Notes under the pieces: generated by a model
What the model was told of the DNA's origin: nothing
Database searches by the model: none
What the model saw: the letters and a program-made list of their open reading frames with translations, nothing else
DNA from: Hemiscyllium ocellatum
Lineage: Eukaryota
Reading direction: 5' to 3'
NCBI RefSeq assembly: GCF_020745735.1
Contig: NW_026869102.1
Location: 128,367-192,366, forward strand
DNA: 64,000 nucleotides
Translations under genes and position numbers: made by a program
Shown here: piece after piece, positions 1 to 35,789 of the stretch
How positions within the stretch are numbered: the stretch's first letter is position 1
Layout of the letters: each line of letters begins with the position of its first letter

Positions 1-3000
1 GATACAGTGAGGGAGATAGGAGAATAATTGAGGGGGAGATACAGTGAGGGAGATGGGAAGATTATTGAGGGGGAGATACAGTGAGGGAGATAGGAGGATT
101 ATTGAGGGGGAGATACAGTGAGGGAGATAGGAGAATAATTGAGGGGGAGATACAGTGAGGGAGATAGGAGGATTATTGAGGGGGAGATACAGTGAGGGAG
201 ATAGGAGGATTATTGAGGGGGAGATACAGTGAGGGAGATGGGAGGATTATTGAGGGGGAGATACAGTGAGAGAGATAGGAAGATTATTGAGGGGGAGATA
301 CAGTGAGGGAGATAGGAGGATAATTGAGGGGGAGATACAGATGGGGAGATAGGAGGATTACTGAGGGGGAGATACAGATGGGGAGATAGGAGGATTATTG
401 AGGGGGAGATACAGTGAGGGAGATGGGAGGATTATTGAGGGGGAGATACAGTGAGGGAGATGGGAGGATTATTGAGGGGGAGATACAGTGAGGGAGATAG
501 GAGAATAATTGAGGGGGAGATACAGTGAGGGAGATGGGAAGATTATTGAGGGGGAGATACAGTGAGGGAGATAGGAGGATTATTGAGGGGGAGATACAGT
601 GAGGGAGATAGGAGAATAATTGAGGGGGAGATACAGTGAGGGAGATAGGAGGATTATTGAGGGGGAGATACAGTGAGGGAGATAGGAGGATTATTGAGGG
701 GGAGATACAGTGAGGGAGATGGGAGGATTATTGAGGGGGAGATACAGTGAGAGAGATAGGAAGATTATTGAGGGGGAGATACAGTGAGGGAGATAGGAGG
801 ATAATTGAGGGGGAGATACAGATGGGGAGATAGGAGGATTATTGAGGGGGAGATACAGATGGGGAGATAGGAGGATTATTGAGGGGGAGATACAGTGAGG
901 GAGATGGGAGGATTATTGAGGGGGAGATACAGTGAGGGAGATGGGAGGATTATTGAGGGGGAGATACAGATGGGGAGATAGGAGGATTATTGAGGGGGAG
1001 ATACAGATGGGGAGATGGGAGGATTATTGAGGGGGAGATACAGTGAGAGAGATAGGAAGATTATTGAGGGGGAGATACAGTGAGGGAGATAGGAGGATTA
1101 TTGAGGGGGAGATACAGATGGGGAGATAGGAAGATTATTGAGGGGGAGATACAGTGAGGGAGATAGGAGGATTATTGAGGGGGAGATACAGATGGGGAGA
1201 TAGGAGGATTATTGAGGGGGAGATACAGTGAGGGAGATAGGAAGATTATTGAGGGGGAGATACAGTGAGGGAGATAGGAAGATTATTGAGGGGGAGATAC
1301 AGTGAGGGAGATAGGAGGATTATTGAGGGGGAGATACAGATGGGGAGATAGGAGGATTATTGAGGGGGAGATACAGTGAGGGCGATAGGAGGATTATTGA
1401 GGGGGAGATACAGTGAGGGAGATAGGAGGATAATTGAGGGGGAGATACAGATGGGGAGATAGGAGGATTATTGAGGGGGAGATACAGTGTGGGAGATAGG
1501 AGGATTATTGAGGGGGAGATACAGTGAGGGAGATAGGAGGATAATTGAGGGGGAGATACAGTGAGGGCGATAGGAGGATTATTGAGGGGGAGATACAGTG
1601 AGGGAGATGGGAGGATTATTGAGGGGGAGATACAGTGAGGGAGATAGGAGGATAATTGAGGGGGAGATACAGTGAGGGAGATAGGAGGATTATTGAGGGG
1701 GTGATACAGTGAGGGAGATAGGAGGATTATTGAGGGGGTGATACAGTGAGGGAGATGGGAGGATTATTGAGGGGGAGATACAGATTGGGAGATAGGAGGA
1801 TTATTGAGGGGGAGATACAGTGAGGGAGATAGGAGGATAATTGAGGGGGAGATACAGATGGGGAGATAGGAGGATTATTGAGGGGGAGATACAGATGGGG
1901 AGGTAAGAGGATTATTGAGGGGGAGATACAGTGAGGGAGATAGGAGGATAATTGAGGGGGAGATACAGATGGGGAGATAGGAGGATTATTGAGGGGGAGA
2001 TACAGTGAGGGAGATAGGAGGATAATTGAGGGGGAGATACAGTGAGGGAGATAGGAGGATTATTGAGGGGGAGATACAGTGAGGGAGATGGGAGGATTAT
2101 TGAGGGGGAGATACAGTGAGGGAGATAGGAGGATAATTGAGGGGGAGATACAGTGAGGGAGATAGGAGGATTATTGAGGGGGTGATACAGTGAGGGAGAT
2201 GGGAGGATTATTGAGGGGGAGATACAGATGGGGAGATAGGAGGATTATTGAGGGGGAGATACAGTGAGGGAGATAGGAGAATAATTGAGGGGGAGATACA
2301 GTGAGGGAGATAGGAGGATAATTGAGGGGGAGATACAGATGGGGGAGATGGGAGGATTATTGAGGGGGAGATACAGATGGGGGAGATGGGAGGATTATTG
2401 AGGGGGAGATACAGATGGGGAGATAGGAGGATTATTGAGGGGGAGATACAGTGAGGGAGATAGGAGGATTATTGAGGGGGAGATACAGATGGGGAGATGG
2501 GAGGATTATTGAGGGGGAGATACAGATGGGGAGGTAAGAGGATTATTGAGGGGGAGATACAGTGAGGGAGATAGGAGGATTATTGAGGGGGAGATACAGA
2601 TGGGGAGATAGGAGGATTATTGAGGGGGAGATAGGAGGATTATTGAGGGGGAGATACAGATGGAGAGGTAAGAGGATTATTGAGGGGGAGATACAGTGAG
2701 GGAGATAGGAGGATTATTGAGGGAGAGATACAGATGGGGAGGTAAGAGGATTATTGAGGGGGAGATACAGTGAGGGAGATAGGAGGATTATTGAGGGGGA
2801 GATACAGATGGGGAGATAGGAGGATTATTGAGGGGGAGATAGGAGGATTATTGAGGGGGAGATACAGTGAGGGAGATAGGAGGATAATTGAGGGGGAGAT
2901 ACAGATGGGGAGATGGGAGGATTATTGAGGGGGAGATACAGTGAGGGAGATAGGATTATTGAGGGGGAGATACAGATGGGGAGATAGGAGGATTATTGAG

Positions 3001-6000
3001 GGGGAGATACAGATGGGGAGATAGGAGGATTATTGAGGGGGAGATACAGTGAGGGAGATGGGAGGATTATTGAGGGGGAGATACAGTGAGGGAGATAGGA
3101 AGATTATTGAGGGGGAGATACAGTGAGGGAGATAGGAGGATAATTGAGGGGGAGATACAGATGGGGAGATAGGAGGATTATTGAGGGGGAGATACAGTGA
3201 GGGAGATAGGAGGATTATTTAGGGAGAGATACAGATGGGGAGATAGGAGGATTATTGAGGGGGAGATACAGTGGGGGAGATGGGAGGATTATTGAGGGGG
3301 AGATACAGATGGGGAGATAGGAAGATTATTGAGGGGGAGATACAGTGAGGGAGATAGGAGGATTATTGAGGGGGAGATACAGATGGGGAGATAGGAGGAT
3401 TATTGAGGGGGAGATACAGTGAGGGAGATAGGAGGATTATTGAGGGGGAGATACAGATGGGGAGATAGGAAGATTATTGAGGGGGAGATACAGTGAGGGA
3501 GATAGGAGGATTATTGAGGGGGAGATACAGATGGGGAGATAGGAGGATTATTGAGGGGGAGATACAGATGGGGAGATAGGAGGATTATTGAGGGGGAGAT
3601 ACAGATGGGGAGGTAAGAGGATTATTGAGGGGGAGATACAGTGAGGGAGATAGGAGGATTATTGAGGGGGAGATACAGATGGGGAGGTAAGAGGATTATT
3701 GAGGGGAAGATACAGTGAGGGAGATAGGAGGATTATTGAGGGGGAGATACAGATGGGGAGATAGGAGGATTATTGAGGGAGAGGTAGGAGGATTATTGAG
3801 GGGGAGATACAGTGAGGGAGATAGGAGGATTATTGAGGGGAAGATACAGTGAGGGAGATAGGAGGATAATTGAGGGGGAGATACAGATGGGGAGATGGGA
3901 GGATTATTGTGGGGGAGATACAGTGAGGGAGATAGGAGGATTATTGAGGGGGAGATACAGTGAGGGAGATAGGAGGATAATTGAGGGGGAGATACAGATG
4001 GGGAGATGGGAGGATTACTGAGGGGGAGATACCGATGGGGAGATGGGAGGATTATTGAGGGGGAGATACAGATGGGGAGATAGGAGGATTATTGAGGGGG
4101 AGATACAGATGGGGAGATAGGAGGATTATTGAGGGGGAGATACAGTGAGGGAGATAGGAGGATTATTGAGGGGGAGATACAGATGGGGAGATAGGAAGAT
4201 TATTGAGGGGGAGATACAGTGAGGGAGATAGGAGGATTATTGAGGGGGAGATACAGATGGGGAGATAGGAGGATTATTGAGGGGGAGATACAGTGAGGGA
4301 GATGGGAGGATTATTGAGGGGGAGATACAGTGAGGGAGATGGGAGGATTATTGAGGGAGAGATACAGATGGGGAGATAGGAAGATTATTGAGGGGGAGAT
4401 ACAGTGAGGGAGATAGGAGGATTATTGAGGGGGAGATACAGTGAGGGAGATAGGAGGATAATTGAGGGGGAGATACAGATGGGGGAGATGGGAGGATTAT
4501 TGAGGGGGAGATACAGATGGGGGAGATGGGAGGATTATTGAGGGGGAGATACAGATGGGGAGATAGGAGGATTATTGAGGGGGAGATACAGATGGGGAGA
4601 TAGGAGGATTATTGAGGGGGAGATACAGTGAGGGAGATAGGAGGATTATTGAGGGGGAGATACAGATGGGGAGATGGGAGGATTATTGAGGGGGAGATAC
4701 AGATGGGGAGGTAAGAGGATTATTGAGGGGGAGATACAGTGAGGGAGATAGGAGGATTATTGAGGGGGAGATACAGATGGGGAGATAGGAGGATTATTGA
4801 GGGGGAGATAGGAGGATTATTGAGGGGGAGATACAGATGGAGAGGTAAGAGGATTATTGAGGGGGAGATACAGTGAGGGAGATAGGAGGATTATTGAGGG
4901 AGAGATACAGATGGGGAGGTAAGAGGATTATTGAGGGGGAGATACAGTGAGGGAGATAGGAGGATTATTGAGGGGGAGATACAGATGGGGAGATAGGAGG
5001 ATTATTGAGGGGGAGATAGGAGGATTATTGAGGGGGAGATACAGTGAGGGAGATAGGAGGATAATTGAGGGGGAGATACAGATGGGGAGATGGGAGGATT
5101 ATTGAGGGGGAGATACAGTGAGGGAGATAGGATTATTGAGGGGGAGATACAGATGGGGAGATAGGAGGATTATTGAGGGGGAGATACAGATGGGGAGATA
5201 GGAGGATTATTGAGGGGGAGATACAGTGAGGGAGATGGGAGGATTATTGAGGGGGAGATACAGTGAGGGAGATAGGAAGATTATTGAGGGGGAGATACAG
5301 TGAGGGAGATAGGAGGATAATTGAGGGGGAGATACAGATGGGGAGATAGGAGGATTATTGAGGGGGAGATACAGTGAGGGAGATAGGAGGATTATTTAGG
5401 GAGAGATACAGATGGGGAGATAGGAGGATTATTGAGGGGGAGATACAGTGGGGGAGATGGGAGGATTATTGAGGGGGAGATACAGATGGGGAGATAGGAA
5501 GATTATTGAGGGGGAGATACAGTGAGGGAGATAGGAGGATTATTGAGGGGGAGATACAGATGGGGAGATAGGAGGATTATTGAGGGGGAGATACAGTGAG
5601 GGAGATAGGAGGATTATTGAGGGGGAGATACAGATGGGGAGATAGGAAGATTATTGAGGGGGAGATACAGTGAGGGAGATAGGAGGATTATTGAGGGGGA
5701 GATACAGATGGGGAGATAGGAGGATTATTGAGGGGGAGATACAGATGGGGAGATAGGAGGATTATTGAGGGGGAGATACAGATGGGGAGGTAAGAGGATT
5801 ATTGAGGGGGAGATACAGTGAGGGAGATAGGAGGATTATTGAGGGGGAGATACAGATGGGGAGGTAAGAGGATTATTGAGGGGGAGATACAGTGAGGGAG
5901 ATAGGAGGATTATTGAGGGGGAGATACAGATGGGGAGATAGGAGGATTATTGAGGGAGAGGTAGGAGGATTATTGAGGGGGAGATACAGTGAGGGAGATA

Positions 6001-9000
6001 GGAGGATTATTGAGGGGAAGATACAGTGAGGGAGATAGGAGGATAATTGAGGGGGAGATACAGATGGGGAGATGGGAGGATTATTGTGGGGGAGATACAG
6101 TGAGGGAGATAGGAGGATTATTGAGGGGGAGATACAGTGAGGGAGATAGGAGGATAATTGAGGGGGAGATACAGATGGGGAGATGGGAGGATTACTGAGG
6201 GGGAGATACCGATGGGGAGATGGGAGGATTATTGAGGGGGAGATACAGATGGGGAGATAGGAGGATTATTGAGGGGGAGATACAGATGGGGAGATAGGAG
6301 GATTATTGAGGGGGAGATACAGTGAGGGAGATAGGAGGATTATTGAGGGGGAGATACAGATGGGGAGATAGGAAGATTATTGAGGGGGAGATACAGTGAG
6401 GGAGATAGGAGGATTATTGAGGGGGAGATACAGATGGGGAGATAGGAGGATTATTGAGGGGGAGATACAGTGAGGGAGATGGGAGGATTATTGAGGGGGA
6501 GATACAGTGAGGGAGATGGGAGGATTATTGAGGGAGAGATACAGATGGGGAGATAGGAAGATTATTGAGGGGGAGATACAGTGAGGGAGATAGGAGGATT
6601 ATTGAGGGGGAGATACAGATGGGGAGATAGGAGGATTATTGAGGGGGAGATACAGTGAGGGAGATAGGAGGATTATTGAGGGGGAGATACAGATGGGGAG
6701 ATAGGAAGATTATTGAGGGGGAGATACAGTGAGGGAGATAGGAGGATTATTGAGGGGGAGATACAGATGGGGAGATAGGAGGATTATTGAGGGGGAGATA
6801 CAGATGGGGAGAGTTAGGAGGATTATTGAGGGGGAGATACAGATGAGGAGATAGGAGGATTATTGAGGGGGAGATACAGATGGGGAGATAGGAAGATTAT
6901 TGAGGGGGAGATACAGTGAGGGAGATAGGAGGATTATTGAGGGGGAGATACAGATGGGGAGATAGGAGGATTATTGAGGGGGAGATACAGTGAGGGAGAT
7001 AGGAGGATTATTGAGGGGGAGATACAGATGGGGAGATAGGAGGATTACTGAGGGGGAGATACAGTGGGGGAGATGGGAGGATTACTGAGGGGGAGATACC
7101 GATGGGGAGATGGGAGGATTATTGAGGGGGAGATACCGATGGGGAGATGGGAGGATTATTGAGGGGGAGATACAGTGTGGGAGATAGGAAGATTATTGAG
7201 GGGGAGATACAGTGAGGGAGATGGGAGGATTATTGAGGGGGAGATACAGATGGGGAGATAGGAAGATTATTGAGGGGGAGATACAGTGAGGGAGATAGGA
7301 GGATTATTGAGGGGGAGATACAGATGGGGAGATAGGAGGATTATTGAGGGGGAGATACAGTGAGGGAGATAGGAGGATTATTGAGGGGGAGATACAGATG
7401 GGGAGATAGGAGGATTATTGAGGGGGAGATACAGATGGGGAGATAGGAGGATTATTGAGGGGGAGATACAGATGGGGAGATAGGAGGATTATTGAGGGGG
7501 AGATACAGATGGGGAGATAGGAGGATTATTGAGGGGGAGATACAGATGGGGAGGTAAGAGGATTATTGAGGGGGAGATACAGTGAGGGAGATAGGAGGAT
7601 TATTGAGGGGGAGATACAGATGGGGAGATAGGAGGATTATTGAGGGGGAGATAGGAGGATTATTGAGGGGGAGATACAGATGGGGAGGTAAGAGGATTAT
7701 TGAGGGGGAGATACAGTGAGGGAGATAGGAGGATTATTGAGGGGGAGATACAGATGGGGAGGTAAGAGGATTATTGAGGGGGAGATACAGTGAGGGAGAT
7801 AGGAGGATTATTGAGGGGGAGATACAGATGGGGAGATAGGAGGATTATTGAGGGGGAGATACAGTGAGGGAGATAGGAGGATTATTGAGGGGAAGATACA
7901 GTGAGGGAGATAGGAGGATAATTGAGGGGGATTTTCAGATGAGATGGGAGGATTATTGAGCGGGAGATACAGTGAGGGAGATAGGAGGATTATTGAAGGG
8001 GAGATACAGTGAGGGAGATAGGAGGATAATCGAGGGGGAGATACAGATGGGGAGATGGGAGGATTACTGAGGGGGAGATACCGATGGGGAGATGGGAGGA
8101 TTATTGAGGGGGAGATACAGATGGGGAGATAGGAGGATTATTGAGGGGGAGATACAGTGAGGGAGATGGGAGGATTATTGAGGGGGAGATACAGATGGGG
8201 AGATAGGAAGATTATTGAGGGGGAGATACAGTGAGGGAGATAGGAGGATAATTGAGGGGGAGATACAGTGAGGGAGATAGGAGGATTATTGAGGGGGAGA
8301 TACAGATGGGGAGATAGGAAGATTATTGAGGGGGAGATACAGTGAGGGAGATAGGAGGATTATTGAGGGGGAGATACAGATGGGGAGATAGGAGGATTAT
8401 TGAGGGGGAGATACAGTGAGGGAGATAGGAGGATTATTGAGGGGGAGATACAGATGGGAGATAGGAGGATTATTGAGGGGGAGATACAGATGGGGAGATA
8501 GGAGGATTATTGAGGGGGAGATACAGATGGGGAGATAGGAGGATTATTGAGGGGGAGATACAGTGAGGGAGATAGGACGATTATTTAGGGAGAGATACAG
8601 ATGGGGAGATAGGAGGATTATTGAGGGAGAGATACAGATGGGGAGGTAAGAGGATTATTGAGGGGGAGATACAGTGGGGGAGATGGGAGGATTACTGAGG
8701 GGGAGATACAGATGGGGAGATAGGAGGATTATTGAGGGGGAGATACAGTGGGGAGATGGGAGGATTACTGAGGGGGAGATACCGATGGGGAGATGGGAGG
8801 ATTATTGAGTCGGAGATACCGATGGGGAGATAGGAGGATTATTGAGGGGGAGATACAGTGTGGGAGATAGGAAGATTATTGAGGGGGAGATACAGTGAGG
8901 GAGATGGGAGGATTATTGAGGGGGAGATACAGATGGGGAGATAGGAAGATTATTGAGGGGGAGATACAGTGAGGGAGATAGGAGGATTATTGAGGGGGAG

Positions 9001-12000
9001 ATACAGTGAGGGAGATAGGAGGATTATTGAGGGGGAGATACAGATGGGGAGATAGGAGGATTATTGAGGGGGAGATACAGTGAGGGAGATAGGAGGATTA
9101 TTGAGGGGGAGATACAGATGGGGAGATAGGAAGATTATTGAGGGGGAGATACAGTGGGGGAGATAGGAGGATTATTGAGGGGGAGATACAGTGGGGGAGA
9201 TAGGAGGATTATTGAGGGGGAGATACAGTGAGGGCGATAGGAGGATTATTGAGGGGAAGATACAGTGAGGGAGATAGGAGGATTATTGAGGGGGAGATAC
9301 CGTGAGGGAGATAGGAGGATTATTGAGGGGAAGATACAGTGAGGGAGATAGGAGGATTATTGAGGGGAAGATACAGTGAGAGAGATAGGAGGATTATTGA
9401 GGGGGAGATACAGTGAGGGAGATAGGAGGATTATTGAGGGGGGGATACAGATGGGCAGATAGGAGGATTATTGAGGGGAAGATACAGTGAGGGAGATAGG
9501 AGGATTATTGAGGGGGAGATACAGTGAGGGAGATAGGAGGATTATTGAGGGGGAGATACAGTGAGGGAGATAGGAGGATTATTGAGGGGGAGATACAGTG
9601 AGGGAGATAGGAGGATTATTGAGGGGAAGATACAGTGAGAGAGATAGGAGGATTATTGAGGGGGAGATACAGTGAGGGAGATAGGAGGATTATTGAGGGG
9701 GAGATACAGATGGGGAGATAAGAGGATTATTGAGGGGGAGATACAGATGGGGAGATAGGAGGATTATTGAGGGGGAGATACAGATGGGGAGATAGGAGGA
9801 TTATTGAGGGGGGGATACAGATGGGCAGATGGGAGGATTATTGAGGGGGAGATACAGATGGGGAGATGGGAGGATTATTGAGGGGGAGATACAGTGAGGG
9901 AGATAGGATAATTGAGGGGGAGATACAGTGAGGGAGATAGGAGGATTATTGAGGGGGAGATACAGATGGGGAGATAGGAAGATTATTGAGGGGGAGATAC
10001 AGTGGGGGAGATGGGAGGATTACTGAGGGGGAGATACCGATGGGGAGATGGGAGGATTATTGAGGGGGAGATACCAATGGGGAGATAGGAGGATTATTGA
10101 GGGGGAGATACAGTGAGGGAGATGGGAGGATTATTGAGGGGGAGATACAGATGGGGAGATAGGAAGATTATTGAGGGGAGATACAGTGAGGGAGATAGGA
10201 GGATTATTGAGGGGGAGATACAGATGGGGAGATAGGAGGATTATTGAGGGGGAGATACAGTGAGGGAGATAGGAGGATTATTGAGGGGGAGATACAGATG
10301 GGGAGATAGGAAGATTATTGAGGGGGAGATACAGTGAGGGAGATAGGAGGATTATTGAGGGGGAGATACAGATGGGGAGATAGGAGGATTATTGAGGGGG
10401 AGATACAGATGGGGAGATAGGAGGATTATTGAGGGGGAGATACAGATGGGGAGATAGGAGGATTATTGAGGGGGAGATACAGTGGGGGAGATAGGAGGAT
10501 TATTGAGGGGGAGATACAGTGAGGGCGATAGGAGGATTATTGAGGGGAAGATACAGTGAGGGAGATAGGAGGATTATTGAGGGGGAGATACCGTGAGGGA
10601 GATAGGAGGATTATTGAGGGGATGATACAGTGAGGGAGATAGGAGGATTATTGAGGGGAAGATACAGTGAGAGAGATAGGAGGATTATTGAGGGGAAGAT
10701 ACAGTGAGAGAGATAGGAGGATTATTGAGGGGGAGATACAGTGAGGGAGATAGGAGGATTATTGAGGGGGAGATACAGATGGGGGAGATAGGAGGATTAT
10801 TGAGGGGGAGATACAGATGGGGGAGATAGGAGGATTATTGAGGGGGAGATACAGATGGGGGAGATAGGAGGATTATTGAGGGGAAGATACAGTGAGAGAG
10901 ATAGGAGGATTACTGAGGGGGAGATACAGTGAGGGAGATGGGAGGATTATTGAGGGGGAGATGGGGAGATACAGATGGGGAGATTGGAGGTTTCTTGCAG
11001 GTGGAGATAGGGGAGATACAGATGCGGAGATACGAGGATTATTGAGGGGGAGATGGGAGGATTATTGAGGGGGAGATACAGTGAGGGAGATAGGAGGATT
11101 ATTGAGGGGGAGATACAGATGGGGAGATAGGAGGATTATTGAGGGGGAGATACAGATGGGGAGATAGGAGGATTATTGAGGGGGGGATACAGATGGGCAG
11201 ATGGGAGGATTATTGAGGGGGAGATACAGATGGGGAGATGGGAGGATTATTGAGGGGGAGATACAGTGAGGGAGACAGGAGGATAATTGAGGGGGAGATA
11301 CAGTGAGGGAGATAGGAGGATTATTGAGGGGCAGATACAGATGGGGAGATAGGAAGATTATTGAGGGGGAGATACAGTGGGGGAGATGGGAGGATTACTG
11401 AGGGGGAGATACCGATGGGGAGATGGGAGGATTATTGAGGGGGAGATGCCGATGGGGAGATAGGAGGATTATTGAGGGGGAGATACAGTGTGGGAGATAG
11501 GAAGATTATTGAGGGGGAGATACAGTGAGGGAGATGGGAGGATTATTGAGGGGGAGATACAGATGGGGAGATAGGAAGATTATTGAGGGGGAGATACAGT
11601 GAGGGAGATAGGAGGATTATTGAGGGGGAGATACAGATGGGGAGATAGGAGGATTATTGAGGGGGAGATACAGATGGGGAGATAGGAGGATTATTGAGGG
11701 GGAGATACAGTGGGGGAGATAGGAGGATTATTGAGGGGGAGATACAGTGAGGGCGATAGGAGGATTATTGAGGGGAAGGTACAGTGAGGGAGATAGGAGG
11801 ATTATTGAGGGGGAGATACCGTGAGGGAGATAGGAGGATTATTGAGGGGAAGATACAGTGAGGGAGATAGGAGGATTATTGAGGTGAAGATACAGTGAGA
11901 GAGATAGGAGGATTATTGAGGGGGAGATACAGTGAGGGAGATAGGAGGATTATTGAGGGGGAGATACAGATGGGGAGATGGGAGGATTATTGAGGGGGAG

Positions 12001-12300
12001 ATGGGGAGATACAGATGGGGAGATTGGAGGTTTCTTGCAGGTGGAGATAGGGGAGATACAGATGCGGAGATACGAGGATTATTGAGGGGGAGATGGGAGG
12101 ATTATTGAGGGGGAGATACAGTGAGGGAGATTGGATGATTATTGAGGGGGAGATACAGATGCGGAGATTGGATGATTATTGAGGGGGAGATACAGATGCG
12201 GAGATGGGAGGATTATTGAGGGGGAGATAGGAGGATTATTGAGGGGGAGATAGGAGGATTATTGAGGGGGAGATAGGAGGATTATTGAGGGGGTGATGGG
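1..12300. repeat. Satellite array A: 37-bp tandem unit GAGGGGGAGATACAGTGAGGGAGATAGGAGGATTATT, ~330 copies. Variant subunits include CAGATGGGG, ATGGGAGG, ATAGGAAG, ATAATTG, ATTACTG and TACCGATGGGG. Higher-order repeats of ~2.14 kb, with ~1.05-1.7 kb blocks in the distal part.
   Basis: Direct reading: unit repeats head-to-tail across the whole interval. Lines 2341-2400 and 4481-4540 are identical; the identical 69-aa artefact ORFs at 3812 and 5989 are offset by 2177 bp. Marker variants ATTACTG/TACCGATG recur near 7080, 8760, 10020 and 11400. No cytosine on the + strand for most of the array. Confidence 0.95.
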
Positions 12301-13249
12301 GAGATACAATGAGTGAGATAGGAGGATTATCGTGGGTGAAATAGGAGGAATATCAAGGGGGAGATGTGGGAACAGAGGGACAGATAGCAGAATACTGGTG
12401 AGGAGATACAGAAGGGGAGATGGAGATCGGGGCAATATGGGGGGTTGGATTCCGAGGGAGAGTTAAGGGGATGCAGACTGGGGGATATAGAGAGGAGATA
12501 AGGGGAACGCAGTGGGAGAGGTACAGAGAGGGAGGTAGGGGAGATAGAGAGGGGGAGATGGGGGAAACACAGGGGTATTGAGAGATATTGTGAGACATAA
12601 GAGGAATACCGTGGTGGAGACAGGGGATTACAAAGGGGAGAATCAAAGGTGGATATAGGGAGAATATACTACAGAGATGGCGGGGGGAAGGGGGGCAGAT
12701 ACAAAGGGGATATGGGACAATACAGTGGAGGAGATATAACGTGCGGATATAGGGTTAATACAAGGGGAATTTGGGGGAATATAATGGGTCAGATAGAAAG
12801 AGGGCGATGGAGAGACGGGTGTGGGAGATAGAAAGTAGGGATACAGGGATACAGTGGGGGGGAGATACACAGGGGAATATTGGGAGAACATAGTGAGGGA
12901 GGTACAAAGGGGGAATATGTGGGTGATACAAAGGAGATATTGATGGAAATACAAAGGGGTTCGAGGGCCAATACAGAGTGGGAGACAGAGGGAGTACCGG
13001 GGGGAATACAAAATGGGAGATACAGAGGTACAGAGGGGCATACAGGGAGAATACAGAGGGAGAATACATGGGCATATAGGGAGAATACAGAGGGAGAATA
13101 CATGGGCATATAGGGAGAATACAGAGGGAGAATACATGGGCATATAGGGAGAATACAGAGGGAGAATTGGGGGGAATACTGAAGGAGAGATGGGGGAATA
13201 CTGAGGGGGAGGTACACAGGGCAGATGGGGATACTGATGGGGAATACAG
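12301..13249. repeat. Degenerate, diverged GA-rich satellite-like spacer between arrays A and B. Contains a 34-bp x3 sub-repeat GGGAGAATACAGAGGGAGAATACATGGGCATATA at ~13075-13160.
   Basis: Irregular copies of GAGATACA / GGGGAATAC motifs without strict period; purine-rich on + strand. Confidence 0.7.
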
Positions 13250-16200
13250 AGGGAGAGATACAAAGGGGAAGAGAGGGGGAATACTGTGGGGGAGATACAA
13301 AGGGGAAGAGAGGGGGAATACTGTGGGGGAGATACAAAGGGGAAGAGAGGGGGAATACTGTGGGGGAGATACAAAGGGGAAGAGAGGGGGAATACTGTGG
13401 GGGAGATACAAAGGGGAAGAGAGGGGGAATACTGTGGGGGAGATACAAAGGGGAAGAGAGGGGGAATTCTGTGGGGGAGATACAAAGGGGAAGAGAGGGG
13501 GAATACTGTGGGGGAGATACAAAGGGGAAGAGAGGGGGAATACTGTGGGAGAGATACAAAGGGGAAGAGAGGGGGAATACTGTGGGGGGATACAAAGGGG
13601 AAGAGAGGGGGAATACTGTCGGGGAGATACAAAGGGGAAGAGAGGGGGAATACTGTGGGAGATACAAAGGGGAAGAGAGAGGGAATACTGTGGTGGAGAT
13701 ACAAAGGGGAAGAGAGGGGGAATACTGTGGGGGAGATACAAAGGGGAAGAGAGGGGGAATACTGTGGGAGTGATACAAAGGGGAAGAGAGGGGGAATACT
13801 GTGGGGGAGATACAAAGGGGAAGAGAGGGGGAATACTGTGGGAGTGATACAAAGGGGAAGAGAGGGGGAATACTGTGGGGGAGATACAAAGGGGAAGAGA
13901 GGGGGAATACTGTGGGGGAGATACAAAGGGGAAGAGAGGGGGAATACGGTGGGAGTGATACAAAGGGGAAGAGAGGGGGAATACTGTGGGAGTGATACAA
14001 AGGGGAAGAGAGGGGGAATACTGTGGGGGAGATACAAAGGGGAAGAGAGGGGGAATACTGTGGGAGTGATACAAAGGGGAAGAGAGGGGGAATACTGTGG
14101 GGGAGATACAAAGGGGAAGAGAGGGGGAATACTGTGGGGGAGATACAAAGGGGAAGAGAGGGGGAATACTGTCGGGGAGATACAAAGGGGAAGAGAGGGG
14201 GAATACTGTGGGAGATACAAAGGGGAAGAGAGAGGGAATACTGTGGTGGAGATACAAAGGGGAAGAGAGGGGGAATACTGTGGGGGAGATACAAAGGGGA
14301 AGAGAGGGGGAATACTGTGGGAGTGATACAAAGGGGAAGAGAGGGGGAATACTGTGGGGGAGATACAAAGGGGAAGAGAGGGGGAATACTGTGGGAGTGA
14401 TACAAAGGGGAAGAGAGGGGGAATACTGTGGGGGAGATACAAAGGGGAAGAGAGGGGGAATACTGTGGGGGAGATACAAAGGGGAAGAGAGGGGGAATAC
14501 GGTGGGAGTGATACAAAGGGGAAGAGAGGGGGAATACTGTGGGAGTGATACAAAGGGGAAGAGAGGGGGAATACTGTGGGGGAGATACAAAGGGGAAGAG
14601 AGGGGGAATACTGTGGGAGTGATACAAAGGGGAAGAGAGGGGGAATACTGTGGGGGAGATACAAAGGGGAAGAGAGGGGGAATACTGTGGGGGAGATACA
14701 AAGGGGAAGAGAGGGGGAATACTGTGGGGGAGATACAAAGGGGAAGAGAGGGGGAATACTGTGGGGGAGATACAAAGGGGAAGAGAGGGGGAATACTGTG
14801 GTGGAGATACAAAGGGGAAGAGAGGGGGAATACTGTGGGAGAGATACAAAGGGGAAGAGAGGGGGAATACTGTGGGAGAGATACAAAGGGGAAGAGAGGG
14901 GGAATACTGTGGGGGAGATACAAAGGGGAAGAGAGGGGGAATACTGTGGGAGTGATACAAAGGGGAAGAGAGGGGGAATACTGTGGGGGAGATACAAAGG
15001 GGAAGAGAGGGGGAATACAGTGGGGGAGATACAAAGGGGAAGAGAGGGGGAATACTGTGGGGGAGATACAAAGGGGAAGAGAGGGGGAATACTGTGGGAG
15101 AGATACAAAGGGGAAGAGAGGGGGAATACTGTGGGGGAGATACAAAGGGGAAGAGAGGGGGAATACTGTGGGGGGATACAAAGGGGAAGAGAGGGGGAAT
15201 ACTGTGGGAGTGATACAAAGGGGAAGAGAGAGGGGGAATACTGTGGGGGAGATACAAAGGGGAAGAGAGGGGGAATACTGTGGGAGTGATACAAAGGGGA
15301 AGAGAGGGGGAATACTGTGGGGGAGAGATACAAAGGGGAAGAGAGGGGGAATACTGTGGGGGAGATACAAAGGGGAAGAGAGGGGGAATACTGTGGGAGT
15401 GATACAAAGGGGAAGAGAGGGGGAATACTGTGGGAGTGATACAAAGGGGAAGAGAGGGGGAATACTGTGGGGGAGATACAAAGGGGAAGAGAGGGGGAAT
15501 ACTGTGGGGGAGATACAAAGGGGAAGAGAGGGGGAATACTGTGGGGGAGAGATACAAAGGGGAAGAGAGGGGGAATACTGTGGGGGAGATACAAAGGGGA
15601 AGAGAGAGGGAATACTGTGGGAGTGATACAAAGGGGAAGAGAGGGGGAATACTGTGGGAGAGATACAAAGGGGAAGAGAGGGGGAATACTGTGGGGGAGA
15701 GATACAAAGGGGAAGAGAGAGGGAATACTGTGGGGGAGATACAAAGGGGAAGAGAGGGGGAATACTGTGGGAGAGATACAAAGGGGAAGAGAGGGGGAAT
15801 TCTGTGGGGGAGATACAAAGGGGAAGAGAGGGGGAATACTGTGGGAGAGATATAAAGGGGAAGAGAGGGGGAATACTGTGGGGGAGATACAAAGGGGAAG
15901 AGAGGGGGAATACTGTGGGGGAGATACAAAGGGGAAGAGAGGGGGAATACTGTGGGGGAGATACAAAGGGGAAGACAGGGGGAATACTGTGGGAGATATA
16001 CAAAGGGGAAGAGAGGGGGAATACTGTGGGGGAGATACAAAGGGGAAGAGAGAGGGAATACTGTGGGAGATATACAAAGGGGAAGAGAGGGGGAATACTG
16101 TGGGGGAGATACAAAGGGGAAGAGAGAGGGAATACTGTGGGAGAGATACAAAGGGGAAGAGAGGGGGAATACTGTGGGAGAGATACAAAGGGGAAGAGAG

Positions 16201-19200
16201 GGGGAATACTGTGGGAGAGATACAAAGGGGAAGAGAGGGGGAATACTGTGGGAGATACAAAGGGGAAGAGAGGGGGAATACTGTGGGGGAGATACAAAGG
16301 GGAAGAGAGAGGGAATACTGTGGGGGGATACAAAGGGGAAGAGAGGGGGAATACTGTGGGAGATATACAAAGGGGAAGAGAGGGGGAATACTGTGGGAGA
16401 GATACAAAGGGGAAGAGAGGGGGAATACTGTGGGAGAGATACAAAGGGGAAGAGAGGGGGAATACTGTGGGAGAGATACAAAGGGGAAGAGAGGGGGAAT
16501 ACTGTGGGGGAGATACAAAGGGGAAGAGAGGGGGAATACTGTGGGAGAGATACAAAGGGGAAGAGAGGGGGAATACTGTGGGGGAGATACAAAGGGGAAG
16601 AGAGGGGGAATACTGTGGGGGAGATACAAAGGGGAAGACAGGGGGAATACTGTGGGAGTGATACAAAGGGGAAGAGAGGGGGAATACTGTGGGGGAGATA
16701 CAAAGGGGAAGAGAGAGGGAATACTGTGGGGGAGATACAAAGGGGAAGAGAGGGGGAATACTGTGGGAGTGATACAAAGGGGAAGAGAGGGGGAATACTG
16801 TGGGAGATATACAAAGGGGAAGAGAGGGGGAATACTGTGGGGGAGATACAAAGGGGAAGAGAGGGGGAATACTGTGGGAGAGATACAAAGGGGAAGAGAG
16901 GGGGAATACTGTGGGGGAGATACAAAGGGGAAGAGAGGGGGAATACTGTGGGAGTGATACAAAGGGGAAGAGAGGGGGAATACTGTGGGAGATATACAAA
17001 GGGGAAGAGAGGGGGAATACTGTGGGAGAGATACAAAGGGGAAGACAGGGGGAATACTGTGGGGGAGATACAAAGGGGAAGAGAGGGGGAATACTGTGGG
17101 GGAGATACAAAGGGGAAGAGAGAGGGAATACTGTGGGGGAGATACAAAGGGGAAGAGAGGGGGAATACTGTGGGAGAGATACAAAGGGGAAGAGAGGGGG
17201 AATACTGTGGGGGAGATACAAAGGGGAAGAGAGAGGGAATACTGTGGGGGAGATACAAAGGGGAAGAGAGGGGGAATACTGTGGGGGAGATACAAAGGGG
17301 AAGAGAGGGGGAATACTGTGGGGGGATACAAAGGGGAAGAGAGGGGGAATACTGTGGGAGTGATACAAAGGGGAAGAGAGAGGGGGAATACTGTGGGGGA
17401 GATACAAAGGGGAAGAGAGGGGGAATACTGTGGGGGAGAGATACAAAGGGGAAGAGAGGGGGAATACTGTGGGGGAGATACAAAGGGGAAGAGAGGGGGA
17501 ATACTGTGGGGGAGATACAAAGGGGAAGAGAGAGGGAATACTGTGGGAGAGATACAAAGGGGAAGAGAGGGGGAATACTGTGGGGGGATACAAAGGGGAA
17601 GAGAGGGGGAATACTGTGGGGGGATACAAAGGGGAAGAGAGGGGGAATACTGTGGGAGAGATATAAAGGGGAAGAGAGGGGGAATACTGTGGGGGAGATA
17701 CAAAGGGGAAGAGAGGGGGAATACTGTGGGGGAGATACAAAGGGGAAGAGAGGGGGAATACTGTGGGGGAGATACAAAGGGGAAGAGAGGGGGAATACTG
17801 TGGGGGAGATACAAAGGGGAAGAGAGGGGGAATACTGTGGGGGAGATACAAAGGGGAAGAGAGGGGGAATACTGTGGGGGAGATACAAAGGGGAAGAGAG
17901 GGGGAATACTGTGGGGGAGATACAAAGGGGAAGAGAGGGGGAATACTGTGGGAGTGATACAAAGGGGAAGAGAGGGGGAATACTGTGGGGGAGATACAAA
18001 GGGGAAGAGAGGGGGAATACTGTGGGGGAGATACAAAGGGGAAGAGAGGGGGAATACTGTGGGAGATATACAAAGGGGAAGAGAGGGGGAATACTGTGGG
18101 GGAGAGATACAAAGGGGAAGAGAGAGGGAATACTGTGGGAGTGATACAAAGGGGAAGAGAGGGGGAATACTGTGGGAGAGATACAAAGGGGAAGAGAGGG
18201 GGAATACTGTGGGAGAGATACAAAGGGGAAGAGAGAGGGAATACTGTGGGAGATATACAAAGGGGAAGAGAGGGGGAATACTGTGGGGGAGATACAAAGG
18301 GGAAGAGAGGGGGAATACTGTGGGGGAGATACAAAGGGGAAGAGAGGGGGAATACTGTGGGGGAGATACAAAGGGGAAGAGAGGGGGAATACTGTGGGAG
18401 ATATACAAAGGGGAAGAGAGGGGGAATACTGTGCGGGAGATACAAAGGGGAAGAGAGGGGGAATACTGTGGGAGTGATACAAAGGGGAAGAGAGGGGGAA
18501 TACTGTGGGGGAGATACAAAGGGGAAGAGAGGGGGAATACTGTGGGGGAGATACAAAGGGGAAGAGAGGGGGAATACTGTGGGAGAGATACAAAGGGGAA
18601 GAGAGGGGGAATACTGTGGGAGAGATACAAAGGGGAAGAGAGGGGGAATACTGTGGGAGAGATACAAAGGGGAAGAGAGGGGGAATACTGTGGGGGAGAT
18701 ACAAAGGGGAAGAGAGGGGGAATACTGTGGGGGAGATACAAAGGGGAAGACAGGGGGAATACTGTGGGAGAGATACAAAGGGGAAGAGAGGGGGAATACT
18801 GTGGGGGAGATACAAAGGGGAAGAGAGGGGGAATACTGTGGGAGTGATACAAAGGGGAAGAGAGGGGGAATACTGTGGGAGAGATACAAAGGGGAAGAGA
18901 GGGGGAATACTGTGGGAGAGATACAAAGGGGAAGAGAGGGGGAATACTGTGGGGGAGATACAAAGGGGAAGAGAGGGGGAATACTGTGGGAGTGATACAA
19001 AGGGGAAGAGAGGGGGAATACTGTGGGGGATACAAAGGGGAAGAGAGAGGGAATACTGTGGGAGATATACAAAGGGGAAGAGAGGGGGAATACTGTGGGG
19101 GAGATACAAAGGGGAAGAGAGGGGGAATACTGTGGGGGAGATACAAAGGGGAAGACAGGGGGAATACTGTGGGGGAGATACAAAGGGGAAGAGAGGGGGA

Positions 19201-20460
19201 ATACTGTGGGGGAGATACAAAGGGGAAGAGAGAGGGAATACTGTGGGAGATATACAAAGGGGAAGAGAGGGGGAATACTGTGGGAGAGATACAAAGGGGA
19301 AGAGAGGGGGAATACTGTGGGGGAGATACAAAGGGGAAGAGAGGGGGAATACTGTGGGAGATACAAAGGGGAAGAGAGGGGGAATACTGTGGGGGATACA
19401 AAGGGGAAGAGAGGGGGAATACTGTGGGAGATACAAAGGGGAAGAGAGGGGGAATACTGTGGGAGATACAAAGGGGAAGAAAGGGGGAATACTGTGGGGG
19501 AGATACAAAGGGGAAGAGAGAGGGAATACTGTGGGGGATACAAAGGGGAAGAGAGGGGGAATACTGTGGGGGAGATACAAAGGGGAAGAGAGGGGGAATA
19601 CTGTGGGGGGAGATACAAAGGGGAAGAGAGGGGGAATACTGTGGGAGATACAAAGGGGAAGAGAGAGGGAATTCTGTGGGGGAGATACAAAGGGGAAGAG
19701 AGGGGGAATACTGTGGGGGAGATACAAAGGGGAAGAGAGAGGGAATTCTGTGGGGGAGATACAAAGGGGAAGAGAGGGGGAATACTGTGGGAGTGATACA
19801 AAGGGGAAGAGAGGGGGAATACTGTGGGAGAGATACAAAGGGGAAGAGAGGGGGAATACTGTGGGAGTGATACAAAGGGGAAGAGAGGGGGAATACTGTG
19901 GGGGAGATACAAAGGGGAAGAGAGAGGGAATACTGTGGGGGAGATACAAAGGGGAAGAGAGGGGGAATACTGTGGGAGAGATACAAAGGGGAAGAGAGGG
20001 GGAATACTGTGGGAGATACAAAGGGGAAGAGAGGGGGAATACTGTGGGAGATACAAAGGGGAAGAGAGAGGGAATACTGTGGGAGAGATACAAAGGGGAA
20101 GAGAGGGGGAATACTGTGGGAGATACAAAGGGGAAGAGAGGGGGAATACTGTGGGGGAGATACAAAGGGGAAGAGAGGGGGAATACTGTGGGAGATACAA
20201 AGGGGAAGAGAGGGGGAATACTGTGGGAGAGATACAAAGGGGAAGAGAGGGGGAATACTGTGGGGGAGATACAAAGGGGAAGAGAGGGGGAATACTGTGG
20301 GAGATACAAAGGGGAAGAGAGGGGGAATACTGTGGGAGAGATACAAAGGGGAAGAGAGGGGGAATACTGTGGGAGATACAAAGGGGAAGAGAGGGGGAAT
20401 ACTGTGGGAGAGATACAAAGGGGAAGAGAGGGGGAATACTGTGGGGGAGATACAAAGGGA
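13250..20460. repeat. Satellite array B: 37-bp tandem unit GGGGGAGATACAAAGGGGAAGAGAGGGGGAATACTGT, ~195 copies. Variants TGGGAGTGATACAAAGG, TGGGAGAGATACAAAGG and TGGGAGATATACAAAGG.
   Basis: Direct reading. Strict 37-bp register over 7.2 kb and essentially C-free on the + strand. Shares GGGGGAGATACA with array A. Confidence 0.95.
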
Positions 20461-20599
20461 GATATAGAGAGAACACAGTGAGAGAGATACAGAGGGGAAA
20501 TACAAAGTGGGAGATGCTGAGGTGGAGAATAAAGAGGGGAGATAGGGAGAATACGGAGGGGTAGATGGGGGAATACCGCGGGGAGATAGAGGGAATGCT

Positions 20600-21190
20600 T
20601 TAACAACACAGAGGTGGAACGATAGGAAGGTGTCGAGCTCCTGGGAGGGGGGTCATCCACAACGAGCTTTCTCGGTCTCTTCACGCGGCGGACGCTCTGG
20701 TCACAAAGACCCAGCAACGTCCATCCCCGCCCCTCCCCTCCACCCCACCCCCTCCCTCCCTCGGGCAGCTGAGGAAATTTGGCGTGACCCTCGCTAACTA
20801 TGAGAGGGTGTGCGGCCGAGAGGGCTCGGTCTGGGGCGTTACCGCTATCCGGCACGGTCACTGCACCATTCCAGATCAGAGACGGTGACAGGGAGGGTGG
20901 GGGGACGCGGCCTGGACAATCACAAAGGACAACCTCCCGTCTCCAGGCTCCGTCTCCCAGGCCCCACTGACCAGGAAAGGCCCCCAGCGTTCTCAAAGAC
21001 CCACCCCACCCTGGGGATGTTTCTGTACCACCTCTCCCCTCCTGTTGTTAGAATACCGAATGGTCTCACAAACCCCTAACATTGGCCTGTCCCTGTGGTT
21101 TTGTTTGTGCTGCTGTCTCCCTATTATTTATCTCAGTGACCTGTCTGTATCGCTCACAAGGCAAACCTTTTCACTGCGTCGCGGGACAAT
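20600..21190. other. ~600-bp unique, non-repetitive island between satellite arrays B and C. Moderately CpG-containing (cgagctc, cacgcggcggacgctc, tgcggccgagagggctcgg, ggcgttaccgctatccggcacgg) and ends in AATAAA at ~21187-21192.
   Basis: No tandem periodicity; base composition differs sharply from flanks. No convincing ORF: the minus-strand ORF 12789..20996 merely reads into it from the satellite. Confidence 0.5.
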
Positions 21191-21199
21191 AAACCCAAT

Positions 21200-27100: not shown

Positions 27101-27838
27101 GAGGAGCAGACACAGAGGGGCAGACACAGAGGGGCAGATACAGAGAGGAGCAGACACAGAGGGGCAGACACACAGAGGGGCAGACACAGAGGGGCAGACA
27201 CAGAGGGACAGATACAGAGAGGGGCAGATACAGAGAGGGGCAGACACACAGAGGGGCAGACACACAGAGGGGCAGACACAGAGGGGCAGACACAGAGGGG
27301 CAGACACACAGAGGGGCAGACACACAGAGGGGCAGATACAGAGAGGGGCAGACACACAGAGGGGCAGACACAGAGGGGCAGACACAGAGGGGCAGACACA
27401 GAGAGGGGCAGATACAGAGAGGGGCAGATACAGAGAGGGGCAGATACAGAGAGGGGCAGACACACAGAGGGGCAGACACAGAGGGGCAGACACAGAGAGG
27501 GGCAGATACAGAGAGGGGCAGATACAGAGAGGGGCAGATACAGAGAGGGGCAGACACACAGAGGGGCAGACACAGAGGGGCAGACACAGAGAGGGGCAGA
27601 TACAGAGAGGGGCAGATACAGAGAGGGGCAGACACAGAGAGGGGCAGATACAGAGAGGGGCAGACACAGAGAGGGGCAGATACAGAGAGGGGCAGATACA
27701 GAGAGGGGCAGACACACAGAGGGGCAGATACAGAGAGGGGCAGATACAGAGAGGGGCAGATACAGAGAGGGGCAGACACAGAGAGGGGCAGATACAGAGA
27801 GGGGCAGACACACAGAGGGGCAGACACAGAGGGGCAGA
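21200..27838. repeat. Minisatellite array C: 16-bp unit CAGAGGGGCAGAYACA with 18-bp variants (CAGAGAGGGGCAGACACA, CAGAGGGGCAGACACACA), ~390 copies. Local sub-periodic motifs (e.g. CAGGAGCAGATACAGAGGGGCAGAC) mark higher-order blocks.
   Basis: Direct reading; the + strand is essentially T-free over 6.6 kb. Near-identical stretches recur, e.g. 21430-21800 vs 23040-23400 and 25200-25560. Confidence 0.95.
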
Positions 27839-27934
27839 TAGTGGAATACAGAAGGGGAGAGACGGGCAGAAAGGGAGAACATGGAGGGGGAGATGGGGAT
27901 GATGGAGGAATCCTGTGGGGGAGGCACAGGGGAA

Positions 27935-35720: not shown

Positions 35721-35789
35721 GCAGAGAATGGAGCCCGAGGGGAAGACCATGGAGATGCAGCACAAGAATGGGGCCTGGGGGTCGGTTCC

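Follow-up and report, generated by a model that had tools for sequence, protein, structure and literature searches.

Near-identical block copies and what looks like incipient, irregular higher-order structure in a G-rich 37-bp satellite of Hemiscyllium ocellatum

The window, by which we mean the whole 64,000-nucleotide stretch of Hemiscyllium ocellatum DNA analysed here (NCBI RefSeq assembly GCF_020745735.1, contig NW_026869102.1, positions 128,367 to 192,366 of the forward strand), opens within a long tandem array that we call satellite A. Tandem arrays make up 66% of the window, with CR1-like LINE fragments interspersed, and telomere repeats were sought in it and not found. Satellite A and its edge comprise the following features.

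1 to 12300, plus strand: satellite A, about 320 units of 37 bp, G-rich strand, with the array cut by the window start
12301 to 13238, plus strand: degenerate transition from satellite A to the next 37-bp satellite, made up of decayed GGGAGATACAG-like units
12353 to 12646, minus strand: open reading frame (ORF) of 97 aa at the array edge

TRF reported a 37-bp tandem array from position 1 to about 12000-12365, with the consensus GATACAGTGAGGGAGATAGGAGGATTATTGAGGGGGA and 87% matches, and in the transition zone it found short and low-scoring arrays only. The 37-bp unit is itself made up of a 14-bp and a 23-bp sub-repeat, both starting with GGGGAGATA, and of 319 anchor-to-anchor intervals, 285 measure 37 bp. 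The plus strand of satellite A is 32% A, 46% G, 19% T and 3% C (48.5% G+C), with purines at 78% on one strand and a GC skew of +0.86 to +0.89 across 1-12 kb. The variant map resolves 308 units into 70 distinct variants, with the two most frequent accounting for 119 of 319 units, and mean pairwise identity is 93.3% among the 285 monomers of exactly 37 bp (minimum 75.7%), as it is among the monomers within the block described below as U1. Monomer types are weakly autocorrelated at lag 2 (0.21), and a 3-monomer (111-bp) higher-order repeat (HOR), hinted at by a TRF row of period 111, was rejected on a type autocorrelation of -0.01 at lag 3. Homology of satellite A with satellite B, a neighbouring array that also has a 37-bp unit, was considered as well and is not demonstrable, because the two share 28 of 37 ungapped matches, with a common GGGGGAGATACA core, and composition-matched shuffles (mean 24.8) reach a maximum of 29.

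In class, satellite A fits a G-rich minisatellite or short-unit satellite, which we defined by a unit of ~10-100 bp, an array of 0.5-30 kb, G-rich strand asymmetry, and a variant order showing single- or multi-unit duplications. It combines a 37-bp unit, strand asymmetry and interspersed variants with a length of at least 12.3 kb in the window, a lower bound for an array cut at position 1, and its variant order records multi-unit block duplications together with a one-unit indel (U1 versus U2). A scan of metagenome contigs with the satellite patterns yielded no further copies of satellite A, and a literature search for its monomer sequence gave no match.

In satellite A and its edge, the only ORFs of at least 60 aa are two duplicated 69-aa artefacts and the 97-aa ORF listed above, and an exact-product look-up of two ORFs of the window returned no match. 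Neither Rfam families nor tRNAs were found in satellite A, no stable base-paired fold was found on either strand, and canonical G-quadruplex motifs (loops of 7 or fewer) number 0, with long-loop candidates only. Functional readings of satellite A were rejected on these results, together with the lack of telomere repeats. Satellite A thus appears to be non-coding and probably without function.

The strongest duplication in satellite A is a pair of abutting blocks, with these features.

2284 to 4423, plus strand: U1, first copy of the super-unit, with 56 units in 22 distinct variants over 2140 bp
4424 to 6600, plus strand: U2, second copy, abutting U1, 2177 bp, 57 units
4548 to 4584, plus strand: extra B-type monomer of U2 (CMMBB versus CMMB), with 4585 to 4621 an equally possible placement
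4424 to 4441, plus strand: duplication junction interval, with the 18-mer ATTGAGGGGGAGATACAG

In the assembly, on which the pair rests, U1 and U2 align with 2139 matches in 2140 positions (99.95%), one 37-bp gap and one substitution (A at 3707, G at 5884), and the order of the 56 variants is identical in both. An earlier sequence-only reading had noted that lines 2341-2400 equal lines 4481-4540 at an offset of 2140, and that two artefact ORFs, 3812-4021 and 5989-6198, are identical at an offset of 2177, one monomer more; both recurrences are exact (60 of 60 and 210 of 210 positions), and it is the extra monomer in U2 that shifts the offset from 2140 to 2177. Both offsets belong to a single head-to-tail duplication, of which there are two full copies. 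The longest exact run in satellite A measures 1318 bp and another reaches 734 bp, compared with longest runs of 167-231 bp in 20 monomer shuffles, and exact runs of at least 200 bp number 18, versus 0-3 in the shuffles. The 18-mer ATTGAGGGGGAGATACAG is common to the boundary of the left flank with U1, the U1/U2 junction, and the boundary of U2 with the right flank, and because the junction falls within it, we regard the exchange as in register and homology-mediated.

Further block duplications lie on either side of this pair.

1 to 481, plus strand: 13-monomer block, copy 1, first unit cut by the window start, (K)UAKAAEQCVBEE
482 to 962, plus strand: 13-monomer block, copy 2, KUAKAAEQCBBEE
7216 to 8115 (approximately), plus strand: partial third copy of the super-unit's 3' part, older, shortened and rearranged, recognised by rare variants and exact runs
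8742 to 9995, plus strand: distal block D3, 1254 bp, from variant maps and rare-38-mer diagonals to D4 and D5
9996 to 11370, plus strand: distal block D4, 1375 bp, 96.0% identical to D3
11371 to 12300, plus strand: distal block D5, degenerate and cut short where the array ends, with D4 diagonals at +1228 and +1040, 98.0% identical to D4
10980 to 11037 and 12020 to 12077, plus strand: divergent 58-mer, copies 1 and 2

These were delimited by exact runs, monomer maps and rare k-mers, used in place of ungapped identity by offset (1-12300), in which phase drift from length-variant units masked the structure. Semi-global alignment with cheap gap extension returned 96-99% for any block pair and was repeated with costly gap opening. 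The 13-monomer pair is 99.8% identical over 481 bp, with a 360-bp exact run at offset 481. For the third super-unit copy, rare variants reappear 2177 bp on and once more after another 1872/1875 bp (3806/5983/7858, 3991/6168/8040 and 4028/6205/8077), exact runs of 190-210 bp occur at offsets of 1764-1898, and 6601-8200 is 96.9% identical to U2, with unrelated blocks at 93-95.4%. Distally, at 8.7-12.3 kb, there are about three diverged blocks of variable length at offsets of 1040-1375 bp, rare 38-mers linking D3 along diagonals with D4 (+1291, +1372 and +1375) and with D5 (+2519 and +2630). Collinear distal diagonals of rare 38-mers (offsets 1683, 1291, 1372, 1375, 1228 and 1040) number seven, where 200 shuffles give 1.35 on average and 5 at most, and the shorter distal blocks of ~1.05-1.7 kb suggested earlier are borne out by these offsets of 1040-1683. 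The marker block GGATTACTGAGGGGGAGATACCGATGGGG, described as recurring near 7080, 8760, 10020 and 11400, does so at 7079, 8762, 10017 and 11392 and is found additionally at 4012, 6189 and 8061, while the divergent block reported at ~10990 and ~12030 is the 58-mer, with exact matches at exactly two sites (10980 and 12020). Ranked by identity, the block pairs run from U1/U2 (99.95%) and the 481-bp pair (99.8%) through D4/D5 (98.0%) and U2/third copy (96.9%) to D3/D4 (96.0%), the distal blocks lying only slightly above unrelated ones. This is a graded age series, in which each block has 2-3 copies of different ages.

Higher-order lines off the diagonal, beyond monomer periodicity, are therefore present and above chance, by exact runs and by rare-38-mer diagonals. 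Do they amount to an alpha-satellite-type HOR, as the sequence-only reading had it? Abutting copies share the same variant order across an in-register junction, and block identity is far above that of the monomers (99.95% versus 93.3%; HOR block copies are expected at 97-100%). The same array, however, has no division into diverged monomer types of about 70% identity, its monomers being 93.3% identical, and its visible part holds two full super-unit copies and one degraded partial copy, not many reiterations at a constant period. In the array-wide analysis of monomer lags, lag 57 alone stands out, because of the single U1/U2 pair, and the blocks vary irregularly in length (481, 1040-1375, about 1683, about 1870 and 2140/2177 bp). 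Nor does the unit belong to the alpha satellite sequence family, with its AT-rich monomer of ~171 bp, being 37 bp long with 48.5% G+C. Of the proposed ~2.14-kb super-unit, what stands is a real duplicated block and what falls is a fixed array-wide period. The alpha-satellite-type reading is only partly supported, because there is no constant period and the monomers are 93% alike: blocks of several monomers were copied whole, by a process of the kind from which alpha-satellite HORs arise, but the features of a mature HOR are mostly absent.

A mature HOR of this type would be a fixed ~2.14-kb unit homogenised over a long, possibly centromeric array, of which the window holds the edge. The excess of block over monomer identity would agree with this, as would a degraded third copy lying next in line with the same variant order, an array that extends past the window start, and an edge that is more diverged, as in known HOR arrays. 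We nevertheless consider it highly improbable, given that full copies number only two, that the sequence directly upstream of U1 (963-2283) is no super-unit copy and has background identity (94.6%), that a different, 481-bp block lies further upstream, and that the window holds no indication of a centromere, in addition to the irregular block lengths, the sole outstanding lag and the undivided monomers already described. It is possible that a regular HOR, such as one with a 481-bp unit, lies beyond the window start. The long-range structure of satellite A itself looks like a higher-order structure still incipient and irregular, and not like an HOR array already established.

Here, we propose that satellite A is a G-rich, non-coding satellite or large minisatellite with a 37-bp unit, and that its structure probably results from nested multi-monomer tandem duplications through out-of-register pairing. 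The duplicated blocks span 13 monomers (481 bp), ~28-37 (1.0-1.4 kb), ~45-50 (1.7-1.9 kb) and 56-57 (2.14-2.18 kb). In the proposed sequence of events, satellite A would pair homologously but shifted by whole units, and an unequal exchange between sister chromatids or homologues would then duplicate a block in one step; alternatively, repair or replication synthesis of the SDSA or BIR type might re-initiate out of register. The copies would afterwards be eroded by one-monomer slippage and point mutation, U1/U2 being presumably the youngest event, with one monomer indel and one substitution since. For arrays of this kind the standard model is duplication of several units at once, whether by slippage, unequal exchange or SDSA (PMC2897807, PMC8122249). 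The mechanism is read here from its end products, which unequal crossover, sister-chromatid exchange, SDSA and BIR would all fit alike.

Singleton variants rise toward the end of satellite A, from 0-7% through 14-29% to 67% in the last 0.4 kb. Homogenisation is weaker at this edge, where private variants accumulate and diversity is higher. Such polarity, with variant diversity greater toward 12.3 kb, is also what might be seen if double-strand breaks at or near the array, as in minisatellites at meiotic hotspots, were followed by gene-conversion-like repair synthesis that duplicates blocks with a bias to one end. The 37-bp unit, G-richness, strand asymmetry and array of at least 12 kb resemble vertebrate minisatellite clusters, several other G-rich short-unit arrays cluster nearby, and multi-unit duplications belong to the evolution of minisatellite maps (PMC2897807). 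However, a passive array-edge effect accounts for the polarity equally well, and a hotspot process, which we regard as doubtful though worth keeping in view, would be a variant of out-of-register block duplication and not a true alternative to it.

Two neighbouring arrays behave as satellite A does, with near-identical internal block pairs above background: the pair in the 16-bp array is 99.35% identical (background 93.3%) and that in the 51-bp array, which has three collinear copies, is 98.2% identical (background 94.0%). For the 37-bp array the strongest duplication is 2140/2177 bp long, for the 16-bp array 2164-2192 bp and for the 51-bp array 2039-2293 bp, and no primary offset exceeds ~2.3 kb in any array examined. 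In satellite B, a signal at offset 2150 was rejected as not above background (97.5% versus 97.25% for the array). The common length of ~2.0-2.3 kb in three arrays is not expected from a simple model of exchange at random offsets, and one reading, which we put forward as quite unlikely, is that block duplication in tandem arrays of this genome has a preferred length of ~2.0-2.3 kb regardless of monomer length or sequence. Were this true, it would suggest that out-of-register repair or the restart of replication is measured against some physical ruler, candidates being the tract length of conversion or synthesis and a chromatin unit roughly 11 nucleosomes long, and such a ruler could help to account for the frequent occurrence of HOR units near 2 kb in unrelated satellites. 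If found genome-wide and validated by reads, the shared length would point to a step of the mechanism that sets it.

A near-equal duplication length in three arrays of unrelated monomers could also be a length scale of assembly software, with U1/U2 and the similar 16-bp and 51-bp pairs being false tandem duplications, produced either by laying the alleles of a length-variable array end to end or by consensus error within the repeat; the difference between U1 and U2, one unit and one base, is what two alleles might show. We judge this improbable. There is no N and no gap anywhere in the 64-kb window, the divergences differ (99.95%, 99.35% and 98.2%) and fall within a graded series with older partial copies, the 51-bp array has its three collinear copies, junctions are cleanly in register, and a 2-kb duplication is below typical long-read length and hence normally resolved.

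Taken as out-of-register block duplication, satellite A is a clean example of the onset of higher-order periodicity in a short-unit satellite, presenting a series of in-register block duplications from the near-pristine U1/U2 to the almost erased, plus the edge heterogeneity to be expected. It is of use in annotating the repeats of the host genome, cautions that an HOR array needs more than two copies, and leaves the general understanding of satellites unchanged.

How does satellite A compare with known systems? In complete plant and animal centromere assemblies, such as those of Arabidopsis CEN178, HORs are loosely defined as any recurring run of consecutive monomers that differs at few variants, and they are often low-copy, variable in length and nested. 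The blocks of satellite A share these three properties, but CEN178-type arrays are megabase-scale and centromeric with nucleosome-sized units, whereas satellite A has ~12 kb visible and a 37-bp unit. With primate alpha-satellite HORs, satellite A shares the copying of adjacent monomers as a block whose copies resemble one another more closely than its monomers do, as well as edges more diverged than the interior; those HORs, however, run to hundreds to thousands of copies, against two full copies and fragments of irregular length here, and a 171-bp AT-rich unit with ~70% monomer identity stands against a 37-bp purine-rich one with 93%, with no sequence similarity between them. The figure of roughly 70% is the one cited for alpha-satellite HOR monomers, and the mechanism presumed for these HORs is out-of-register homologous exchange or BIR (PMC8122249). 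Satellite A also resembles the G-rich hypervariable minisatellites, which have a unit of tens of bases, an array of kb to tens of kb, one G-rich strand, and variant maps in which unit order records how one or several units were duplicated, be it through slippage, through unequal exchange or through SDSA (PMC2897807, PMC8122249); satellite A, at 12.3 kb or more and cut by the window start, may exceed their typical size. Smith-type unequal-crossover models give nested, transient longer periods and poor edge homogenisation without selection (PMC8122249), which matches the nesting and edge of satellite A, although the common ~2.0-2.3 kb length in three arrays is not predicted. Block duplication in satellites is a well-known phenomenon, an ordinary footprint of misaligned recombination.

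Here, we confirm the observation of the sequence-only reading that satellite A, the 37-bp tandem array at the start of the window, is repeated in blocks larger than its monomer. TRF reports a single array from 1 to ~12300 (consensus unit GATACAGTGAGGGAGATAGGAGGATTATTGAGGGGGA), with the window start falling within it. The unit is a composite of a 14-bp piece (GGGGAGATACAGAT) and a 23-bp piece (GGGGAGATAGGAGGATTATTGAG) with a common opening (GGGGAGATA), and the 60-bp length variants are a unit plus an additional 23-bp piece. On the + strand, G accounts for 46% of bases, A for 32%, T for 19% and C for 3% (GC skew +0.86 to +0.89). Of the 319 units obtained by cutting the array at a fuzzy GGAGATACAG anchor, 285 measure exactly 37 bp; with an exact GATACAG anchor the count is 308, representing 70 distinct variants. 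Two variants, told apart by TGAGGG versus ATGGGG, account for 119 of the 319 units. Mean pairwise identity among 37-bp units is 93.3%, and adjacent units are no closer to each other (93.1%) than far-apart ones. The two main types alternate weakly (type autocorrelation 0.21 at lag 2) and are unevenly spread (1-2200 versus 2200-8000): TGAGGG predominates in the proximal 2 kb, and mid-array (2200-8000) the types tend to alternate as a weak 74-bp dimer. The 111-bp TRF period was ruled out as a real trimer by a type autocorrelation of -0.01 at lag 3.

Blocks of satellite A
2284-4423: U1, first copy of the ~2.1-kb super-unit, 2140 bp, 56 units
4424-6600: U2, second copy, 2177 bp, 57 units, directly adjoining U1
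8742-9995: D3, distal block defined by rare 38-mers
9996-11370: D4, distal block defined by rare 38-mers
11371-12300: D5, distal block defined by rare 38-mers

U1 and U2 match at 2139 aligned positions and differ by a single substitution (3707 A / 5884 G) and a single 37-bp gap; their variant maps (letters coding for monomer variants) read CMMBAGFAH... and CMMBBAGFAH..., the 56 variants otherwise following in identical order. Offsets 2140 and 2177 are the products of one duplication event. An 18-mer (ATTGAGGGGGAGATACAG) is common to the left flank/U1, U1/U2 and U2/right flank boundaries, and the U1/U2 junction is flanked on its left by the context of the U2 end and on its right by that of the U1 start; the junction matches the trace expected of in-register, homology-guided exchange between misaligned array copies. 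Because the copies differ by one substitution in 2140 bp, the event is very recent relative to the other block duplications. The stretch 5' of U1 (963-2283) is no further copy, matching U1 at 94.6%, a background level. A partial copy, older and shortened, follows U2: three rare variants appear at 3806/3991/4028, 5983/6168/6205 and 7858/8040/8077 (steps of +2177, then +1872 to +1875), exact runs of 190-210 bp occur at offsets 1764-1898, and 6601-8200 is 96.9% identical to U2. The earlier ~2.14-kb super-unit is thus real as the U1/U2 duplication but not as a constant period, since 57 is the sole monomer lag standing out array-wide and its source is this pair.

Direct comparison bore out the identities quoted earlier (2341-2400 with 4481-4540, 3812-4021 with 5989-6198). 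In a diagonal scan, offset 2177 gave exact runs of 1318 bp (starting at 2389 and 4566) and 734 bp (at 3708 and 5885), and offset 2140 one of 168 bp; when the order of the monomers was shuffled (20 arrays), the longest exact run reached 167-231 bp. The array has 18 exact runs of 200 bp or more, the shuffled arrays 0-3 each. Across 10-unit sliding windows, the median best match elsewhere had 10 differences versus 18 in shuffles, and about one third, nearly all inside U1/U2, had at most 3. The marker GGATTACTGAGGGGGAGATACCGATGGGG recurs where previously placed (7079, 8762, 10017, 11392) and additionally at 4012, 6189 and 8061, and a 58-base divergent block recurs exactly at 10980 and 12020. With these recurrences and exact runs above shuffles, the array therefore shows off-diagonal higher-order lines, and not the monomer-only dot-plot set beforehand as the refuting outcome.

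Other blocks are shorter. A 13-unit (481-bp) block stands twice at the window start (1-481 and 482-962, one mismatch), in a series that could continue upstream. The shorter distal recurrence described earlier is also present: D3, D4 and D5 are collinear within 8.7-12.3 kb (overall offsets 1040-1375), at offsets of 1291, 1372 and 1375 (D3-D4) and 1228 and 1040 (D4-D5), and their head motif is also at 7049-7227 (offsets 1683 and 4313). The distal copies are old and vary in length. D3 and D4 share 96.0% identity and D4 and D5 98.0%, compared with 93-95.4% between unrelated blocks. Their collinearity is above chance, with 7 diagonals observed (mean 1.35, maximum 5 in 200 shuffles) and a best support of 123 (shuffle maximum 93).

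Across most of 1-8 kb, 0-7% of units are singleton variants (scored per kb); their share climbs to 14-29% in 8-12 kb and reaches 67% in the final 0.4 kb, with length variants increasing alongside. Between 12300 and the start of the next array, the repeat degrades to irregular GGGAGATACAG-like sequence. Such an edge gradient is expected if exchange homogenises array ends less effectively.

Other features of the window
12353-12646: minus strand, 97-aa ORF at the edge of satellite A
13036-13167: 34-bp array with GGGAGATACAG-like core
13239-20499: second 37-bp satellite, consensus GGGGAATACTGTGGGGGAGATACAAAGGGGAAGAGAG, 95% matches
21331-27838: 16-bp array, unit CAGAGGGGCAGACACA
27895-28205: 23-bp array with GGGAGATACAG-like core
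39600-40103 and 46596-47033: CR1-like LINE C-terminal-like fragments
40270-40779: CR1-like LINE RVT_1 domain
40734-41342: CR1-like LINE C-terminal part, frameshifted
53011-64000: 51-bp array, cut by the window end

The satellite A region is without meaningful coding capacity: its ORFs of at least 60 aa are solely two duplicated 69-aa artefacts and the 97-aa ORF. Rfam and tRNA searches of the region gave no match, telomere repeats were looked for and not found, and neither strand of satellite A showed base-paired structure. Canonical G-quadruplex motifs (loops of at most 7) number 0, with long-loop candidates only. The sequence was not found in the metagenome contigs scanned, nor did a literature search with it give a match.

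Tandem arrays make up ~66% of the window, including several shorter minisatellites (TRF). Between them lie CR1-like LINE fragments (RVT_1 match, E 1.9e-25), the C-terminal part having its best named homologues in skates, rays, sharks and a chimaera (Leucoraja, Chiloscyllium, Mobula, Pristis, Hypanus, Callorhinchus); CpG is depleted in 30-50 kb (observed/expected 0.39). These features point to a cartilaginous fish as the probable source. The otherwise unique mid-window holds more short minisatellites (35555-36687, 37857-38201, 50002-51149, 51523-52210) with units of 51 and 43 bp (GC-rich, poly-G tracts), 55, 31 and 74 bp, some with multi-unit TRF periods (129/226, 154, 301 bp). On the minus strand at 21171-28345, the 16-bp array is traversed by two overlapping artefact ORFs (2356 and 2381 aa; low-complexity Pro/Leu/Ser/Cys/Val translations), and further long ORFs cross a 31-bp array (49896-51501). 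A look-up of such products found no record in the assembly collection; array-spanning ORFs could mislead automatic gene calling.

Throughout 1-29634 every array has its G-rich, purine-rich strand on the + strand, and a GGGAGATACAG-like core of ~11-14 bp is common to several. The arrays of this interval suggest one family diversified in place. Satellite A and the second 37-bp satellite have the same unit length and a common GGGGGAGATACA core; their similarity, 28/37, is within the range of composition-matched shuffles.

Kilobase-scale duplications also occur outside satellite A. The 16-bp array carries a ~2.17-kb tandem pair (22332-24495 / 24496-26690; 99.35% identity versus 93.3% background; offsets 2164, 2178, 2192; exact runs up to 634 bp), and the 51-bp array a pair at 56848-58886 and 58887-61100 (98.2% versus 94.0% background; offsets 2039-2293) and a 1750-bp pair (60634 versus 62384, exact run 906 bp). 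Smaller repeats are also seen: a 553-bp block duplication in the second 37-bp satellite (13589 versus 14142, 584-bp exact run), an earlier partial copy at offset 1564 in the 16-bp array, and 708-bp and 1042-bp repeats in the 51-bp array. The strongest duplication is ~2.0-2.3 kb in each of three arrays with different monomers (37, 16 and 51 bp), none of which has a primary offset above ~2.3 kb, a post hoc observation on three loci. This shared length could be chance, or it could reflect a genuine length scale inherent in the mechanism. It could also be an assembly effect, against which the differing divergences of the pairs favour real events of different ages, and the window is free of gaps and Ns.

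What process might have left the duplications observed in satellite A, with their copy numbers, identities and in-register junction? The best reading of its block structure, drawn from established models (Smith-type unequal crossover, sister-chromatid exchange, SDSA and BIR; PMC8122249, PMC2897807), is that out-of-register homologous exchange, or re-initiated repair/replication synthesis, recurred inside the array. Every such event would duplicate one block of units, with one-unit slippage and point mutation acting afterwards.

The process held to create alpha-satellite HORs (higher-order repeats) is the one proposed here, and the earlier alpha-satellite-type interpretation is partly supported. 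A classical HOR is a block of diverged monomers (~70% identity) present in many copies that match each other at 97-100% identity (PMC8122249). Satellite A has the block repetition, and its blocks are closer to each other than its monomers are, but its monomers do not fall into diverged types, nor do its blocks recur many times at a constant period; under the loose definition of complete centromere assemblies, its blocks would count as HORs. Large G-rich minisatellites or short-unit satellites are closer to it in unit size, G-richness, strand asymmetry and variant-map behaviour. Satellite A is a previously undescribed satellite with a well-known kind of organisation.
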